Shown: positions 3,219 through 58,366, numbered from the stretch's first letter. The stretch: 64,000 bases of DNA from a virus (IMGVR_UViG_3300014204_000170:9717-73716); one strand, 5' to 3'. The notes: generated from the sequence alone by a model not told the origin. Program-made: numbers and translations.

Positions 3219-3307
3219 ATAATTTTTTTCTAATAAACTAATAAACTAATAATCTAATGTGTTAAAAACAATTTTGTCTATAGTTTATTTTCATATTTAG
3301 CTAAACC

Positions 3308-4099
3308 CTAAAATGAATTAGGATTTGCTTTATTGGAAATCAAAGAATCAATCATGTTACTATCTGCTGATATTCGGTGTGTTGAATTTCCTGAACCACC
3401 ACCCATGTTTAATGCTCCTGATTTTTCTAATTCTGCTTTATCTATTTCTGCTTGGGCACGAGCTTCTTTTTCTGAAAGTTCTCCTTTGACTGCGTAGTAT
3501 GCAATAGAAATGTCTGTAACATCATGTTCATCAAGCCATGCATCGATTTCTTTAGAGTATTTTGAGAAATCTGGTGTTCGATTTATAAAATCATTTACAC
3601 TAGATTCAAATGCACTAAGGTCATCTCTTTCTTTTAATTCTTTCTGTAAATCACCCTTAAGTTCTCTAGCTTTGTCCTCAATAAGTTTTGAGATTTCTTC
3701 AGGAGAAGCACCTTTGTACTCTGCCTTAGTTAAATCTTTTTTAACTTCTGCGGCTGCTGTATTAACTATTTCAGCATCTGTGATCGAAACCTTACCTTCC
3801 ATAGCTGCTTTTGCTAGGTCTGGCGTAATTTTTCCGTCCACGATGGCTTGTATAAGTTCAGGACTTTTATCTAACTTGTCTAACAATGGAGAGATATCAG
3901 AAATAAACTTTCTATATTCTCCTAATTCTGCCCCTTGCCTTCCTACAAGACTCTCCAGTTCCTTATGTTGTACTGGATCTATTTGAGGTGCTTGATTTTG
4001 TGTCTCCCCTACAGCACCTCCAAAGCTATTAGGATTAGGAACACTTGTAACTTCTGGACTACCCGCATTTGCGGATCCATTGAATTTATTTTCTTCCAT
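3308..4099 (-). CDS. putative scaffolding protein
   Basis: 263 aa, highly charged and coiled-coil-like (KELKERDDLSAFES...). Sits between the portal region and the capsid gene. Confidence 0.4.
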   Translation of the reverse strand: MEENKFNGSANAGSPEVTSVPNPNSFGGAVGETQNQAPQIDPVQHKELESLVGRQGAELGEYRKFISDISPLLDKLDKSPELIQAIVDGKITPDLAKAAMEGKVSITDAEIVNTAAAEVKKDLTKAEYKGASPEEISKLIEDKARELKGDLQKELKERDDLSAFESSVNDFINRTPDFSKYSKEIDAWLDEHDVTDISIAYYAVKGELSEKEARAQAEIDKAELEKSGALNMGGGSGNSTHRISADSNMIDSLISNKANPNSF

Positions 4100-4151: not shown

Positions 4152-4676
4152 TTATAACTTAATTCCGTTAATGCATTCTTCAACTGATTCATTTATATCA
4201 TGTTCCCAAAAACGATAAACCATATAACCATTAGAGATAAGTACTTGATCTTGTTTAAAATCTCTATCTCTTCGACCAATATATTTATCTGGATGATGAA
4301 TGGGGCAATTATGATAATAACAACCATCTACTTGAATTGCAATACCGTAATCTGTTAATAAAAAATCTACCACCGCTACTTTACATAATTGAACTTGTTT
4401 TGTATATTTAATATTTCTTTCCTTAAGTTCATTTTCTACTTTTACCTCAATTCCTGTTTCTTTAAATTTACGATTTGGATTAGCAATTTGCCATTCACTA
4501 TTTTTCTTTTTAACTTCAGGCCTCTTTGAAGGATTTTTATCTCCAATCATTGCTTCTTTGCGTTTTTGTCTATTTTCTAATTTTTTAGAAGGATTTTTAT
4601 CAGTTAACATAAATTTTCTATGTTTTTCTCGTGTAATATCTGAAACTAATTTTCTTTTATATTGTCCTGTAGGCAT
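4152..4676 (-). CDS. Vsr/DUF559-like endonuclease-fold protein (possible free-standing homing endonuclease)
   Basis: C-terminal motif DGCYYHNCPIHHPD...RDRDFKQDQVLISNGYMVYRFWEHDI resembles very-short-patch-repair/DUF559 nucleases. The N-terminus carries lysine-rich DKNPSK repeats. Confidence 0.4.
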   Translation of the reverse strand: MPTGQYKRKLVSDITREKHRKFMLTDKNPSKKLENRQKRKEAMIGDKNPSKRPEVKKKNSEWQIANPNRKFKETGIEVKVENELKERNIKYTKQVQLCKVAVVDFLLTDYGIAIQVDGCYYHNCPIHHPDKYIGRRDRDFKQDQVLISNGYMVYRFWEHDINESVEECINGIKL

Positions 4677-12582: not shown

Positions 12583-13097
12583 AAGTTTAAAAAATTATTT
12601 AATAATGGTTTAATTATACCACAGTACATGAGATGAAAAGAAGGGGGAAGCTAATGTGTGAGAGTGATTAATTCTCGAATCAAATATTATTCATATTTAT
12701 TCCCCCGTTGGAAATTAAAATTTCCCCTTCTGTTCACCTAAGATGTATAAAGTTCTGGGAGTGGATTATGGTTTCCACTAAGGATGGAGTAGATTATGGC
12801 TTTTATTTTTGCAGACTTTAAGAGTAACCTACCCCTTATTGTCAGTGACTTTCCACCTACCTAGGAAGCTTGTCATAAATTGACGACTATTTAAACCCAA
12901 CTGCAGGAGGGCATAAACAATACTACTGTCAACTGGCTGATTCCACAGCCACTTTGGAGACGTACCTTTTACAAGTTGTAATTCCATCCTATCATCTCCG
13001 CGAGCCCACTCGCATCAATGTAGTTTATCTCCCGTCAAAGAGATTATTCACTCACCCAGAACTTTATACACCTTTTCAAATAACTATATCTAGTGTA

Positions 13098-27824: not shown

Positions 27825-28199
27825 ATGCAAAATATACCAACAATTATAGAACAAACAATTAGCGTCTTAAGTGAAAAGTTTGGCGTAGTAGGAACACGAC
27901 TCTGGGCTGTATTAATTAAACAATCTTATATAGATGGATGGACAAACATAGCAGGAACAATTATATTCCTAATACTTATTATAGGAGGAATTATACTATT
28001 TAAAAGAGGTGATAAAGAATACAAAATGAAAGATAAATGGGATCATGACCCAAGTGGATGGTGGATATCGAGAATGGTTGTATTAACTTTTAGTTCAATA
28101 GGAATAATGTTTAGTATTACAGGAGCAATAAATGACTTTGCTAATCCAGAATATCAAGCAATTCAAACTATTTTATCAGCAACTAGTCAGCAAAAATAA
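27825..28199 (+). CDS. small membrane protein (2 TM helices)
   Basis: 124 aa with two hydrophobic segments. Confidence 0.45.
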   Translation: MQNIPTIIEQTISVLSEKFGVVGTRLWAVLIKQSYIDGWTNIAGTIIFLILIIGGIILFKRGDKEYKMKDKWDHDPSGWWISRMVVLTFSSIGIMFSITGAINDFANPEYQAIQTILSATSQQK

Positions 28200-28208
28200 T
28201 TATTAACA

Positions 28209-28456
28209 TTGTGAACTGAATGTAAGTGTGGCGAAATTAGACTAACGCAAGATTCTACTAATAGCTTAGTGCTACGAAGTAATCAGCGACGGCCAATAGG
28301 CAGACATTGATTACAGGCTTATGTTCCCAACAAATTATATCCGTGGATTTCGGAGAACCTATTGCGGTTCTATGATGAAAAACTCGAATTTAACCATGAA
28401 CACATAAATATCTTACTATAAAGTGAAAATCTTTATCACTTACATTCAGTTCACAA
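28209..28456. mobile_element. 248-bp element bounded by perfect 20-bp terminal inverted repeats (MITE-like or long-stem structured RNA)
   Basis: TTGTGAACTGAATGTAAGTG at 28209-28228 is the exact reverse complement of CACTTACATTCAGTTCACAA at 28437-28456. The interior is GC-richer than its surroundings and has no ORF. Confidence 0.45.
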
Positions 28457-28471
28457 TAAACAACAAAATAT

Positions 28472-28726
28472 ATGAAAGTAGAAGCAAGAATAAGTTCAAC
28501 AGAAAACAAAATAGTTGACATTGTTCCAAACAGTGAAAAAATATGTAGTTGTGGAGCAAAAATACTTTACAAGGTTACATATATAAACAAAAAAGGTGAA
28601 CGAACATGGACACCAATAGTAGAAATAGAGGAAGAAATAAAAATGTTAGATAACACAGTTAAAAAATTTATTATTAAGAAAAACCATTTTATAGATTGCC
28701 CAGACTGGAAACTATATCACAAATAA
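28472..28726 (+). CDS. hypothetical protein
   Basis: 84-aa ORF with a Cys pair. Confidence 0.4.
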   Translation: MKVEARISSTENKIVDIVPNSEKICSCGAKILYKVTYINKKGERTWTPIVEIEEEIKMLDNTVKKFIIKKNHFIDCPDWKLYHK

Positions 28727-28727
28727 C

Positions 28728-29411
28728 ATGCCTAAAATCAAAAAAGAATTAATACAATATAAAGGAGAAGATAAAGAAATAATCAGAAAAAAGATAATAG
28801 AAACAATTAATAAAGAATATGAAAAAGACCCAACAACAACATTCCTTGATTTATTCGGAGAAGGAGAATCATATAACCAAGTAAGAAAAGAAACAAAAGC
28901 AAGAATACTATCCATTGATAATAATCCTACAATAGCAAAAAAAATGAGAACATTACCAGATACAAGATTTATCTCAATTTATGATTTATGTATCGAGGCA
29001 AGAGAAAGCTTCAATGTAATGTATCTAGATTATTGTGGAATACTAAAAGAAGGAGGAGATATAGAAAAAGATTTAATGGTATTACCAAATATAATGAAAG
29101 ATAAGGGTGTATTATTCTTAACATTATCAATGCGAGACATAGACTACGACAAAGGAACAGATAGACATATGATGGAAAGAGCAATAGTATCAACAATAGC
29201 TCATGATTTTATGATTAATAAAGTCAAAATAGAAAGAATGTACACAGCAAAATATAAATCATTTGCTACAATAAAAGGAAAAAGAAAAAAGGGTAATTAT
29301 ACACCAATGAAAGTATACAAATTTTTATGGGAAAAAGTTATCGAACGAATAGACACAATTCCATTCAAATTTGATGACACATTAATTCTACCAACAGATA
29401 TAACAGATTAA
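28728..29411 (+). CDS. hypothetical protein, possible SAM-methyltransferase-like fold
   Basis: FLDLFGEGESY resembles the glycine-rich motif I of Rossmann-fold methyltransferases; the assignment is weak. Confidence 0.3.
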   Translation: MPKIKKELIQYKGEDKEIIRKKIIETINKEYEKDPTTTFLDLFGEGESYNQVRKETKARILSIDNNPTIAKKMRTLPDTRFISIYDLCIEARESFNVMYLDYCGILKEGGDIEKDLMVLPNIMKDKGVLFLTLSMRDIDYDKGTDRHMMERAIVSTIAHDFMINKVKIERMYTAKYKSFATIKGKRKKGNYTPMKVYKFLWEKVIERIDTIPFKFDDTLILPTDITD

Positions 29412-29543
29412 TAATTAAATAAGTAAGGAAAGTCACTTGTCCCCATATTGTAATGATATGGTGCACTTTATTGTGAATATATATCTCCAGACATATATTG
29501 AAGCGGTTAGAGAACGGGGTGACCATTTGAGCTATGATTCGGT

Positions 29544-29978
29544 TTGGCTCATACATTAATAACAACAAAATATATGAAAACATATAAAATGATATACAAA
29601 GTATTATTAACAAATTGTGAAATAATAGAAGCACCTACGTATAAAATAGCTGAAGAAAAATTCACAAAATTAATGAAAAAAACAAATCCTTTTAAATTAC
29701 CAAATAAAATTCCTAAAAACATAACCTTCGAAGATTACATGATAACAGGATCATTTATAGAAAAAAACTGTTCACACTGTCATCAACCTATAAAAGATAA
29801 AACAATATCAAAAATAAATTTAACAGCAGAACTAGAATCTAAGCTAACAAATGAACAATGGACATTATATGATCAATTAAAAACATTACAATTTGAAGAA
29901 GAATACGAAGAAAAAAACAAAAACAAAAAAACAAAACTAGGTAAAAAAAGCCAGATAGACACATCATGTTACCTATAA
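29544..29978 (+). CDS. hypothetical protein
   Basis: 144-aa ORF. Confidence 0.4.
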   Translation: MAHTLITTKYMKTYKMIYKVLLTNCEIIEAPTYKIAEEKFTKLMKKTNPFKLPNKIPKNITFEDYMITGSFIEKNCSHCHQPIKDKTISKINLTAELESKLTNEQWTLYDQLKTLQFEEEYEEKNKNKKTKLGKKSQIDTSCYL

Positions 29979-30018
29979 ATCACAACATTAACCATTAACA
30001 ATAATAACATTTAAAACA

Positions 30019-30246
30019 ATGACAAACTTTCACCTATGTGCAAAACCAACATGTTTAAAGCAAACAGACAACTATTTTTGCGATAAACATATAAAAGCTT
30101 ACAACAAAACATGGCATTATAAAATTAGTAGATTTAATACATGGCCAAAAAACATGATATCTGGTCGACCAATAAAACTATTTGGTATTTATCTATTCTG
30201 CATAATGCATATAGCTAACAAAGATTACCAATGGCAAAACAATTAA
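30019..30246 (+). CDS. small Cys-rich (zinc-binding) protein
   Basis: CAKPTCLKQTDNYFCDKH. Confidence 0.35.
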   Translation: MTNFHLCAKPTCLKQTDNYFCDKHIKAYNKTWHYKISRFNTWPKNMISGRPIKLFGIYLFCIMHIANKDYQWQNN

Positions 30247-30261
30247 TAATTAAATAAATAT

Positions 30262-30606
30262 ATGATAGACATAAACGGATTAGATTGTTGTGGAATTAAA
30301 GAAATCGTTGATATAGACAATTATACTGAAAATCCAAAACAGATAATATTAGATATATGTGAAGATTACTATAAGGAAGAACATATGTGTGCATTTTACA
30401 TATTCTCAGATATACAAAAGAAAAAAGCAGGAAAAAACTTAAAAAACTTCATTCAAAAAAATAAACTAGGATTAATAACATTATCACCAATAAGAATTAA
30501 CCCTAACTCAGGTAATTCATTAAGAGTCTACTTATGGACAATAGACAAAAAGAATCTTAAACAATATTGGCATAAAAACAATAATTACGATGTTGATGAA
30601 TATTAA
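30262..30606 (+). CDS. hypothetical protein
   Basis: 114-aa ORF. Confidence 0.4.
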   Translation: MIDINGLDCCGIKEIVDIDNYTENPKQIILDICEDYYKEEHMCAFYIFSDIQKKKAGKNLKNFIQKNKLGLITLSPIRINPNSGNSLRVYLWTIDKKNLKQYWHKNNNYDVDEY

Positions 30607-34192: not shown

Positions 34193-34771
34193 ATTAACTA
34201 GTGTGTAAGGTTCTGGGCAGTTATTAATTTACAAAGAAGTTCGCAACAATAATGTCTGCCACGTGGAAACGTAATCCTCGTGAGACCAAGTTTATTAGAC
34301 AGTCAGCGTAAGCTGTTACATAAGGAAAATTAAAAAATATTAATATATATACGGATTGATCGTCAATATAGATATTAAAAATATTTAATTAGATATATAG
34401 TCAACTAAACACTTATAAGTAAATTAATTCTAACCCAGAGCCTTGCACACTAATAAATATATGACAAAATTAACATACATACTAATAGGATTAATTATAG
34501 GTATGCCAATAGGAGCAATAGCTATAATGTTAGGTTATTTATCAGGTAAAAAATAATTATTAATAATAGCACTAATCAACTTAAGATTAGGAATTACATA
34601 TGCCAGAATTAGAAGGAGTTTTATCAATCAAAGACTCAGAAGGAAATTTAATCGCAATAGTATACAACGACATTAAAAGAAAATCGCAAGTTTTCTTTAC
34701 AGTAAAAGAATGTGGAGCTGAAGATATTAAAATGTTATTAGAAGACTTATTAGTTAAAAATAATACATAAT

Positions 34772-45967: not shown

Positions 45968-46268
45968 ATATAAATATTCATAATTAATAATTTAAACAGC
46001 ACAGTGGTTGGGAGTTGAACCCAAATGGATGATTTTGGAGATCTTCCTATGACCGTCACCCACCATAATGTGGGTAATCTAATACCCACCCAAAACTATT
46101 CTAATTCAGTCTTAACTTCTTCTTCTACGACAGACTCTTCAACTGGTGTTTCAACAACTGGTGTTTCAACAACTTCTGGTTCTGCTCCTATTTTTAAATC
46201 TTCATTCATAAATTTTTTATTTTTAACTTTTGATAATCATTCGACCAGTATTAATATAATAACATAGT

Positions 46269-57682: not shown

Positions 57683-57711
57683 AGTGTATACCTATTCGAT
57701 TTACTTGTCAA
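57683..57711 (-). promoter_or_regulatory. consensus promoter TTGACA-17-TACACT (minus strand)
   Basis: Spacer AGTAAATCGAATAGGTA. Confidence 0.55.
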
Positions 57712-58366
57712 GTGATAACCCTAGATATTCCATATATTTATTATATTTTCTTTCCAATCTAAGATTTATTGAATCTTTATATACTAATTTTAAAAGTTTC
57801 AATGATTCTTTTGTGGAATACTTAACCAAAAAAGCTGTTCTGTTTTTTGTTAAATTTTTTAATCTTAATCCACTTAGTTCATTAATTTCTTTTTGTAAAC
57901 TTTTTAAAAAAGGAATAGAAGCACTAACAATTGAAACTCTTAAAAATGTATATGTTTTATTTTTATATTTATCTTGCTGTGTATAAACAGAACCATCCCC
58001 ATCAATAACTCCTCTTAAAAAATGAAAAAAATATTTTTTAGGGATTTTTAGCATTCTTACTATTTTACTTTTATTGGGTTTCAACCCTAATTGAATTAAC
58101 TTATTATAAATTTTCCTACTAGAAAGATACAATGTATATTGTATTTTAGTTCTATTTTTAGGTAAATACCCTTTAATAGGATATGTATTTTCAAGTTTTT
58201 GGGCAATTTTTTCTAATATTTCCTTATCTACACTTCCTATTTTCACTTCTCCATTCCTTTTAGAAATATTACCATCAGTTAAAATATATCCTAAAATATA
58301 GGCATTTTCTTTTGAAAAACTATTAAAAAACTCATCGTTTATTTTATATTTTCTTTTTGTATTCAT
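57701..58366 (-). CDS. LAGLIDADG homing endonuclease (free-standing, two-motif)
   Basis: LGYILTDGNI and LRGVIDGDGSV dodecapeptide motifs. Confidence 0.65.
   Translation of the reverse strand: MNTKRKYKINDEFFNSFSKENAYILGYILTDGNISKRNGEVKIGSVDKEILEKIAQKLENTYPIKGYLPKNRTKIQYTLYLSSRKIYNKLIQLGLKPNKSKIVRMLKIPKKYFFHFLRGVIDGDGSVYTQQDKYKNKTYTFLRVSIVSASIPFLKSLQKEINELSGLRLKNLTKNRTAFLVKYSTKESLKLLKLVYKDSINLRLERKYNKYMEYLGLSLDK

Follow-up and report, generated by a model that had tools for sequence, protein, structure and literature searches.

A probable structured non-coding RNA with a long closing stalk and a tRNA-like arm order in an uncultivated clade of large phages

Phage non-coding RNAs that combine strong structural conservation with an unknown function are rare, and several of them have proved mechanistically surprising. 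Long duplexes with a known processing role occur in the E. coli rRNA operon stems and in the DicF small RNA (sRNA) from the Qin prophage dicBF, where an RNase III stalk of about two helical turns surrounds a structured RNA, and five early-mRNA signals of phage T7 lie between the cistrons of a polycistronic transcript. The PeSL cassettes of T4-type phages, reportedly described by Arbiol et al. in 2010, are said to be short promoter-plus-hairpin units thought to be recombination substrates; they are conserved intergenic structures beside small early genes with shuffled content. Here we analyze an intergenic inverted-repeat element in a 64,000-nt stretch of viral DNA (IMGVR_UViG_3300014204_000170:9717-73716; hereafter the window), which is part of a 109,737-bp metagenomic phage contig. 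Like the RNase III stalks, the element is closed by a helix of about two turns, designated P1; like the T7 signals, it is intercistronic; and like the PeSL cassettes, it accompanies small early genes, but it differs from the latter in being a 250-nt multi-helix fold. The element has a conserved four-way-junction RNA fold on the transcribed strand.

An earlier note, made from the sequence alone, had described perfect 20-bp terminal inverted repeats around a GC-enriched, ORF-free core between two small genes, and had judged such complementarity unlikely by chance. A repeat search confirmed the repeats and extended each arm by one base: the arms are 21 nt each, 100% complementary and separated by 208 nt. 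They form the longest inverted repeat of the window, and none of 200 first-order Markov simulations of the window (perfect inverted repeats, spacing 50-600 nt) contained one of 21 nt, the maximum being 17. The arm 20-mer has only two sites in the 64-kb window with up to three mismatches allowed; the shuffle expectation was 0.04 matches, and two matches were reached in 0 of 100 shuffles. Both controls agree with the judgement that the repeats are not a chance occurrence. The core is enriched in G+C as described (0.36-0.38 versus ~0.27 in the surroundings), the value being 0.38 over 28200-28399, where the surroundings have about 0.25-0.31, and 0.36 for the element overall. No open reading frame (ORF) of at least 30 amino acids (aa) lies wholly within the element, so that the core is free of ORFs at this cut-off; ORFs 28390-28521 (minus strand) and 28423-28518 (plus strand) only cross the right arm, and a 28-codon ATG frame at 28321-28407 in the core does not keep its phase in the closest homologue, that of contig L126. 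The flanking genes are indeed small (124 and 84 aa), and both lie on the plus strand. The folding z-score of the element is -5.4. Promoter and terminator scans gave matches no commoner than in shuffles, and a -10-like AATAAT 7 nt upstream of P1 is indistinguishable from the AT-rich background.

Homologues of the element were found through the genes of its phage. The window encodes SU10-type capsid and portal proteins, 22 tRNA genes, RtcB, a chaperonin, S-adenosylmethionine-cycle enzymes, a DnaB-type helicase and three phiEco32-type COOH.NH2 ligases. A blastn search of 27000-30000 against 50,697 GenBank phages gave no match, and the window ligase is at most 25-32% identical to proteins of cultured phages, but its relatives in a large protein database form a graded series on ~100-kb contigs. 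Comparison of the DNA around nine ligase relatives with the window revealed the element in five related ~100-kb SU10/phiEco32-like metagenomic phages, with four complete copies and one truncated by the contig end. The element has the same gene neighbourhood in phages that share only 57-81% identity in their marker protein, and it stays in place although the flanking genes differ between relatives. The earlier note had named relatives that share the sequence and lack the arms as evidence against its reading; instead, the relatives keep the arms and have lost similarity in the core. The arms and a conserved frame around the core were recovered, whereas the core itself could not be aligned by blastn.

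The conserved frame consists of the arms, the 26 nt past the left arm and the 27 nt ahead of the right arm. RNAalifold, applied to an untrimmed MAFFT alignment of four full-length copies, predicted four helices, P1 to P4, with 14 pairs changed on both sides. Across five frames (window, L126, L006, L010 and L008), 98.9% of the cells are paired and 16 of the 35 pairs carry double changes; when the partners were slid by 1-3 columns, pairing dropped to 37-41% with 0-2 double changes, and the observed values were reached in 0 of 500 shuffles. The contrast with the slid partners is inflated, as the trimmed alignments were made knowing the structure. The pairs of P1 are preserved by compensatory changes in all four relatives: in L126 one A-U pair has become G-C, in L010 three extra base pairs stand at matching places in both strands, and in L008 20 bp still pair although the P1 sequence is largely different. 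In the small hairpin P2, the middle pair is C-G in the window and U-A in L126 (GUG...CAC), and both-side changes affect three of the five pairs of P3 and two pairs of P4. The P4 loop reads UGAAA(A/G)U in all members and is closed by an invariant G-C pair, and P4 adjoins the 3' strand of P1 without a spacer. Over the 84 frame positions outside P3, the window and L126 differ at only four, which together make two compensatory pairs (~95% identity). We also observed that, at position 4 of the P2 loop (28237) and position 6 of the P4 loop (28429), the window and L126 have U/A, L006 and L010 have C/G, and L008 has A/G.

The strand on which this fold exists could be read from its wobble pairs. All non-Watson-Crick positions of P1 in the homologues are G·U on the plus strand, whereas the other strand would carry a C·A clash. 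Fifteen closing helices pooled from this family (family 1), its paralogues and a second family (both described below) contained 16 G·U, one A·C and one other mismatch, but this raw count is biased because the helix scan tolerated G·U, so that the independent test is the choice of strand. In 11 of the 11 wobble-containing elements, the wobble-compatible strand was the coding strand of the flanking genes; this set includes the element at 12740-13074, where both the genes and the fold are on the minus strand. The strand choice and the three covarying internal helices together favour a transcript over protein-bound DNA repeats, and we are confident that the element specifies a structured RNA on the plus strand. 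Covariation supports one option of the earlier note, namely a transcript closed by a long helix, such as a structured sRNA or a processing element.

Table 1. Coordinates of the element, its parts, flanking genes, homologues and a further paralogue. Positions without a contig name refer to the window; percentages are identities to the window ligase.
Feature	Location	Strand	Remarks
Inverted-repeat element	28208-28457	+	arms 28208-28228 (ATTGTGAACTGAATGTAAGTG) and 28437-28457 (CACTTACATTCAGTTCACAAT)
P1, 5' strand (AUUGUGAACUGAAUGUAAGUG)	28208-28228	+	21-bp closing helix; perfect inverted repeat
J1/2 linker UG	28229-28230	+	invariant in 5/5 members; also in paralogues L126-E1, L126-E3 and L009a
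P2 hairpin GCG / 12-nt loop AAAUUAGACUAA / CGC	28231-28248	+	loop consensus AAAnnAGAnnA
P3, 5' strand AAGAU	28249-28253	+	pairs with 28410-28414
Variable core	28254-28409	+	~156 nt; G+C-rich in the window's phage; enclosed by P3
Core hairpin GGAGAACC-UAUUGC-GGUUCU	28352-28371	+	only core piece recognisably common with L126
P3, 3' strand AUCUU	28410-28414	+	pairs with 28249-28253
J3/4 linker ACU	28415-28417	+	3 nt; AAU in L006 and L010
P4 hairpin AUAAAG / loop UGAAAAU / CUUUAU	28418-28436	+	6 bp, 7-nt loop
P1, 3' strand (CACUUACAUUCAGUUCACAAU)	28437-28457	+	perfect inverted repeat
Upstream flanking gene	27825-28199	+	124-aa membrane protein (phrog_1486); stop codon 8 nt before element
Downstream flanking gene	28472-28726	+	84 aa; start codon 14 nt past element
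Homologue L126	1588-1853		complete; ligase 81%; closest relative
Homologue L006	7874-8119		complete; ligase 64%
Homologue L010	6375-6629		complete; ligase 65%; same sequence as L011 and L042
Homologue L008	13924-14150		complete; ligase 61%
Homologue L004	element's 3' end at contig's very start		ligase 80%
Further paralogue	L009:5928-6266		frame logic as in the L126 elements

One of the relatives, L126, carries three such elements within 5 kb: E1 (382-625), E2 (1588-1853, the orthologue of the window element) and E3 (2637-2883). E1, E2, E3 and the L009 element have in common a P1 of 20-24 bp, the UG linker with a hairpin of 3-4 bp and an A/G-rich loop (AAAAAGAGAAA, GAAUAGUAA) next to it, and another hairpin that adjoins the P1 3' strand, while their arms and interiors are unrelated. 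E3 is flanked by orthologues of the window genes 30019-30246 and 30262-30606, and since these two genes are only 15 nt apart in the window, E3 is present in L126 and absent from the window; no target bases are duplicated at this site of gain or loss. L126 also lacks the window's 124-aa gene, such that a conserved leader (window 27650-27815) leads directly into E2. Within this region, in the 273-nt gap that precedes the 124-aa gene, window 27653-27797 (plus strand) folds into a long imperfect hairpin (z -6.4). L126 has kept this hairpin directly ahead of E2 (L126:1470-1587), with a compensating change at the outer pair; it may represent a promoter, a leader region or a further RNA.

Paralogues gained or lost as units bear on the other option of the earlier note, a miniature inverted-repeat transposable element (MITE), that is, a non-autonomous DNA transposon whose 21-bp terminal inverted repeats would be transposase binding sites. 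MITEs, like this element, consist of a short non-coding interior between perfect terminal inverted repeats. Four homologues share a well-conserved arm sequence, one relative has three paralogues inside 5 kb, and E3 amounts to a presence/absence polymorphism between two genes that are adjacent in the window. However, the target-site duplication that the note had proposed to look for was found neither at the window copy (flanks ...TTATTAAC / AAACAAC...) nor at the homologues or E3. Nor are there repeated copies: the arms are unique in the window at up to three mismatches, the exact 20-mer has no match in IMG/VR, and the paralogues carry unrelated arms. The arm mismatches of the homologues are only G·U on the transcribed strand, the L010 arms share a co-ordinated 3-bp insertion, P2-P4 covary, the gene neighbourhood is retained across 57-81% marker identity, and a scan of window ORFs turned up no transposase domain. 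A MITE is therefore extremely unlikely.

Alternatively, the folded molecule could be single-stranded DNA, either an attC-like recombination site for cassette exchange or a replication or packaging signal. Folded single-stranded DNA tolerates G·T wobbles too, and the exchange of content between the window (124-aa gene present, E3 absent) and L126 (the reverse) is cassette-like. In addition, other assemblies end inside the element: contigs L001 (start), L002 (end) and L004 (start) break within P4, all within ~15 nt (window 28410-28426). Against this, contigs L006, L008, L010, L011 and L126 run straight through their copies; the folded strand tracks transcription even where the genes flip, as at 12740-13074 (minus strand); conserved loops around a covarying four-way junction are characteristic of RNA; and no integrase or recombinase was found nearby among the scanned ORFs. 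We consider a DNA structure of this kind highly improbable. A genome terminus or nick at the element as a general property was rejected, because contigs of the same run read through it, and the breaks in P4 more likely reflect an assembly fork than a physical DNA end, the fork arising where co-occurring phages have a common frame and differing cores. A retron RNA, for which the inverted repeats might speak as counterparts of a1/a2, was excluded because no reverse transcriptase domain was found in the scanned window ORFs or in the gene tables of the related loci.

The order of the helices is that of a tRNA. Starting from the closing stem, a D-like hairpin with a 12-nt loop (P2), a long arm (P3 and the core) and a T-like hairpin with a 7-nt loop at the closing stem (P4) follow one another, separated by linkers of 2 nt, 0-1 nt, 3 nt and 0 nt, in the sequence acceptor, D, anticodon, T; in secondary structure and loop sequence, the topology is tRNA-like. 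According to the T-loop pentaloop definition taken from PMC4810234, the P4 loop UGAAARU fits a T-loop, having U at position 1 and A at position 5. The abutment of P4 on P1, and of P2 on P3 with no more than one nucleotide between them, resembles the coaxial T/acceptor and D/anticodon stacks of tRNA. By contrast, the ends differ: P1 is 20-25 bp long and is followed by AAAC..., where tRNA has a 7-bp acceptor with CCA and discriminator. We regard a true tRNA-like elbow as doubtful, though not far-fetched. A tmRNA was rejected, as neither ARAGORN nor Rfam made a tmRNA call and the 28-codon core frame is not conserved in L126. The genuine tRNA genes of the window (20137-23968; 45999-46069) number 22, and 21 of them form one plus-strand cluster upstream of the early-gene block that contains the element.

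The core, in the position of the anticodon arm, could not be aligned among homologues by MAFFT either; when the window and L126 were forced into a global alignment, it reached ~60% identity, compared with 75-82% at the DNA level for neighbouring genes. The hairpin that is common to both (Table 1) reads GGAGGACC-AAAUGC-GGUCCU in L126, with a compensating A-U to G-C pair. A search for antisense targets of the core elsewhere in the window yielded nothing past 11-nt chance matches. Since it is unalignable and has no significant complementarity to the window, this arm is either weakly constrained or diversifying.

A T-loop-like hairpin on a long stem, with RtcB encoded 4.5 kb downstream, also brings to mind a divergent Y-RNA-like RNA (YrlA/Yrn type), in which the stem would bind a Ro60-like ring protein and a tRNA-like module would work with RtcB. 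After the stem comes GGCGAA, similar to the beginning of the YrlA motif GNCGAAN0-1G (PMC4201824), and in the related contig L005 a DUF2828 + vWA-like protein gene is followed by a stem enclosing a T-arm-like CCG-UUCGACU-CGG. However, the C in GGCGAA is replaced by U together with a compensating change in its partner, which marks it as part of a base pair rather than of a protein-binding motif, the G after GGCGAA is absent, and the loop is UGAAARU where the YrlA T-arm has UUCGA. The arms run D-like then T-like, in the reverse order of YrlA, and the element is also present at loci that lack RtcB. At E<=10, Rfam gave no match to a Y RNA or YrlA, and no TROVE/Ro60 domain was found among the window ORFs scanned. 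Such an RNA is very unlikely here.

The invariant nucleotides are concentrated in junction-proximal loops, and the intercistronic site is one where a processing activity would be useful, as might be expected of a new self-cleaving ribozyme or other catalytic RNA built on the four-way junction. The earlier note had included self-cleavage among its options, but no Rfam ribozyme family showed similarity at E<=10, leaving a known ribozyme unsupported. The alignment marks no cleavage site, and a protein could already direct cleavage at the long perfect duplex; a catalytic RNA therefore has very little probability.

We think it probable that the element is a gene for a ~250-nt structured non-coding RNA, of a family not in Rfam, which is released by means of its stalk and acts in trans. 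The RNA would be read on the plus strand within one transcript with the surrounding small genes, and would fold into a four-way junction with a P1 duplex of 20-25 bp, the small hairpin P2, P3 bearing a ~150-nt diverging domain, and P4 stacked on P1. An ideal bacterial RNase III substrate has 22 bp, or two turns (PMC3867540). P1 measures 20-25 bp in the five family-1 copies and in three paralogues that share the frame, and on account of this match we take P1 to be a putative processing stalk. Its cleavage by a double-strand-specific, RNase III-type enzyme would cut the polycistronic transcript between cistrons, separate the flanking messages and free the RNA; by analogy with known stalks, we consider such excision an even prospect. 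The arm order, the spacing and the T-loop hairpin would give the freed RNA a tRNA-like L-shape, with an elbow of the P2 and P4 loops as its conserved recognition surface and the variable domain in place of the anticodon arm. This arrangement points to a partner able to recognise tRNA shape; early in infection, the RNA might act in trans by serving as a scaffold or decoy for a factor of this type.

Cleavage at P1 would equally serve a purely cis-acting mRNA element, similar to a T7 R site, in which an intercistronic RNase III signal or a stability or insulator signal parts or stabilises the flanking messages, or frees the downstream start region, and the excised piece has no function. The element fits tightly between co-oriented genes, with spacers of 8 nt and 14 nt, P1 is as long as an RNase III substrate, several different long-helix elements occupy intergenic gaps of these phages, and the core is poorly conserved, all as such a signal would have it. 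A bare processing site, however, needs neither a four-way junction nor invariant loops (AAAnnAGAnnA, UGAAARU) nor covarying P2-P4; the frame outside P3 is ~95% identical where neighbouring genes are 75-82% identical, and the element is kept between relatives while the flanking genes are not. Because the invariant loops of P2 and P4 are dispensable for the cut and yet are conserved beyond the neighbouring proteins, they point to a function of the released RNA or to a binding site at the junction, and we rate a purely cis-acting role as unlikely.

Several points weigh against a released, trans-acting RNA. Its transcription, its processing and the existence of a discrete RNA species are all predictions from sequence. 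The covariation is based on five independent sequences only, too few for a formal R-scape-type test, and knowledge of the structure guided the trimmed alignments (A4, A9). In four of the five members, P1 is strongly conserved in sequence as well as in pairing, which would also suit sequence-specific recognition by a protein. The likeness to tRNA is a resemblance in topology and in one loop motif, and does not amount to membership: the tRNA model (Rfam RF00005) and ARAGORN gave no match at the element while calling 21-22 genuine tRNAs elsewhere in the window, and ARAGORN found nothing in constructs with P1 shortened to 7 bp and a 7-nt loop in place of the core. The scan of window ORFs revealed neither an RNase III gene nor a candidate partner protein. 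Finally, because the flanking genes vary among relatives, the genomic context gives no hint of function.

The element family is confined to a narrow, rare phage clade. In IMG/VR, single-protein locus searches with the 227-aa neighbour, the 124-aa protein and the ligase found no further locus; tblastn with the flanking 124-aa protein gave one weak match only, and the 227-aa protein had one distant homologue, on a 1-kb contig. A pattern for the 5' module retrieved 35 loci from JGI metagenomes, of which only L042, identical to L010, was genuine, the others being chance matches in coding DNA of other G+C content. A pattern for the 3' module retrieved 18 loci from 185,579 GTDB genomes and IMG/VR, none with a closing helix or a 5' module. 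At 79 IMG/VR loci with more distantly related ligases, neither nhmmer with frame profiles nor the covariance model R1 detected a family member; R1, built from core-deleted frames, did not span the ~150-nt insertion and gave partial matches only. A structural descriptor (P1, UG, P2, P4) with P1 of at least 13 bp gave 23 matches versus 37 in reversed sequence, and this search is informative for P1 of at least 20 bp only.

The paralogues and a second structured-RNA family indicate that these phages carry several such RNAs. In the window, the second family lies at 34199-34452 (plus strand), beginning 7 nt past the RtcB stop codon, and is closed by a helix of 19-23 bp (UAGUGUGUAAGGUUCUGGG / CCCAGAGCCUUGCACACUA). 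Further copies lie at L004:5230-5527, L005:6589-6881, L008:11696-12011, L010:11065-11402 and L127 ~3300-3575; two relatives likewise have it after RtcB, and in two others it follows a COOH.NH2 ligase. The interior of the three RtcB-linked copies is well conserved, with 8 pairs changed on both sides, and the family has no Rfam match. The minus-strand element at 12740-13074 (335 nt, 20-nt arms with one G·U on the minus strand, z -4.6) sits in a 690-nt G+C-rich gap between two minus-strand genes of the structural region; its arms resemble those of the second family (..AAAGUUCUGGG), and its Rfam matches are at chance level only.

Other structures were noted in the same genomes. Window 26729-26911 (plus strand) has a 17-bp closing helix and an AT-rich interior (z -4.8), and lies in a region of ~1 kb (26184-27203) that has no convincing genes. 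At 27566-27604, just past a 76-aa gene, a perfect 17-bp hairpin with a 5-nt loop was scored by the scan as terminator-like on the minus strand, yet it is inside a plus-strand gene block. L005:1475-1618 is a 15-bp closing helix followed by a U-run, directly past the DUF2828 + vWA-like (DUF7788) gene; it encloses the T-arm-like CCG-UUCGACU-CGG, has no Rfam match, and may be a tRNA-like RNA paired with the DUF2828 + vWA-like protein. The window also contains a free-standing LAGLIDADG homing-endonuclease-like gene (57701-58366, minus strand) and a Vsr/DUF559-type endonuclease-like gene (4152-4676, minus strand).

Because paralogues on the same scaffold are gained and lost like cassettes, the element could belong to a family of decoy or adaptor RNAs in an arms race with the host. 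The tRNA-shaped scaffold would then display a hypervariable ~150-nt domain, and the RNAs would act in trans, for example as tRNA-elbow mimics engaging or titrating tRNA-directed host nucleases or processing enzymes; the same phages also carry 22 tRNAs and the repair ligase RtcB. We give this extended proposal only a slim chance. The released, trans-acting RNA that we favour, if real, would represent a new structured-RNA family, or even a small superfamily, with a tRNA-junction-like architecture on a long stalk and a fast-evolving domain, from an uncultivated clade of ~100-kb phages without cultured relatives. The second RNA, located directly after RtcB in three phages, suggests that RNA-level takeover of the host or RNA repair is important and unexplored here. 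The frame, with its stalk and T-loop junction, may also serve as a natural RNA-stabilising scaffold.

How does the element compare with described RNAs? At 28100-28560, Rfam 15 gave nothing at the gathering threshold and only six chance-level matches (E 3-7), all scoring far under that threshold, and a literature search turned up catalogues of candidate viral structured RNAs (PMC10690425; PMC12286853) but no match to this element. With tRNA it shares the UG linker at the place of U8-N9, but it has a closing stem of 21-25 bp instead of a 7-bp acceptor and lacks CCA, G18G19 and a T-Psi-C signature. The tRNA-like domain of tmRNA and the YrlA/Y RNAs are analogues of its junction; it matches no tmRNA model, and YrlA has the opposite arm order. 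The T7 early signals are simple ~60-nt hairpins with internal loops, whereas the element has a perfect duplex, a four-way junction and a 150-nt domain, and its cleavage is a prediction. ROOL and GOLLD are likewise phage-borne non-coding RNAs of unknown role; the element, which is supported by covariation and resides in a tRNA-rich genome, is much smaller (~250 nt), matches no Rfam model and was absent from the IMG/VR loci examined. In summary, although its general kind is known, the element represents a new family: a structured non-coding RNA of phages that combines a putative processing stalk with a tRNA-like junction.

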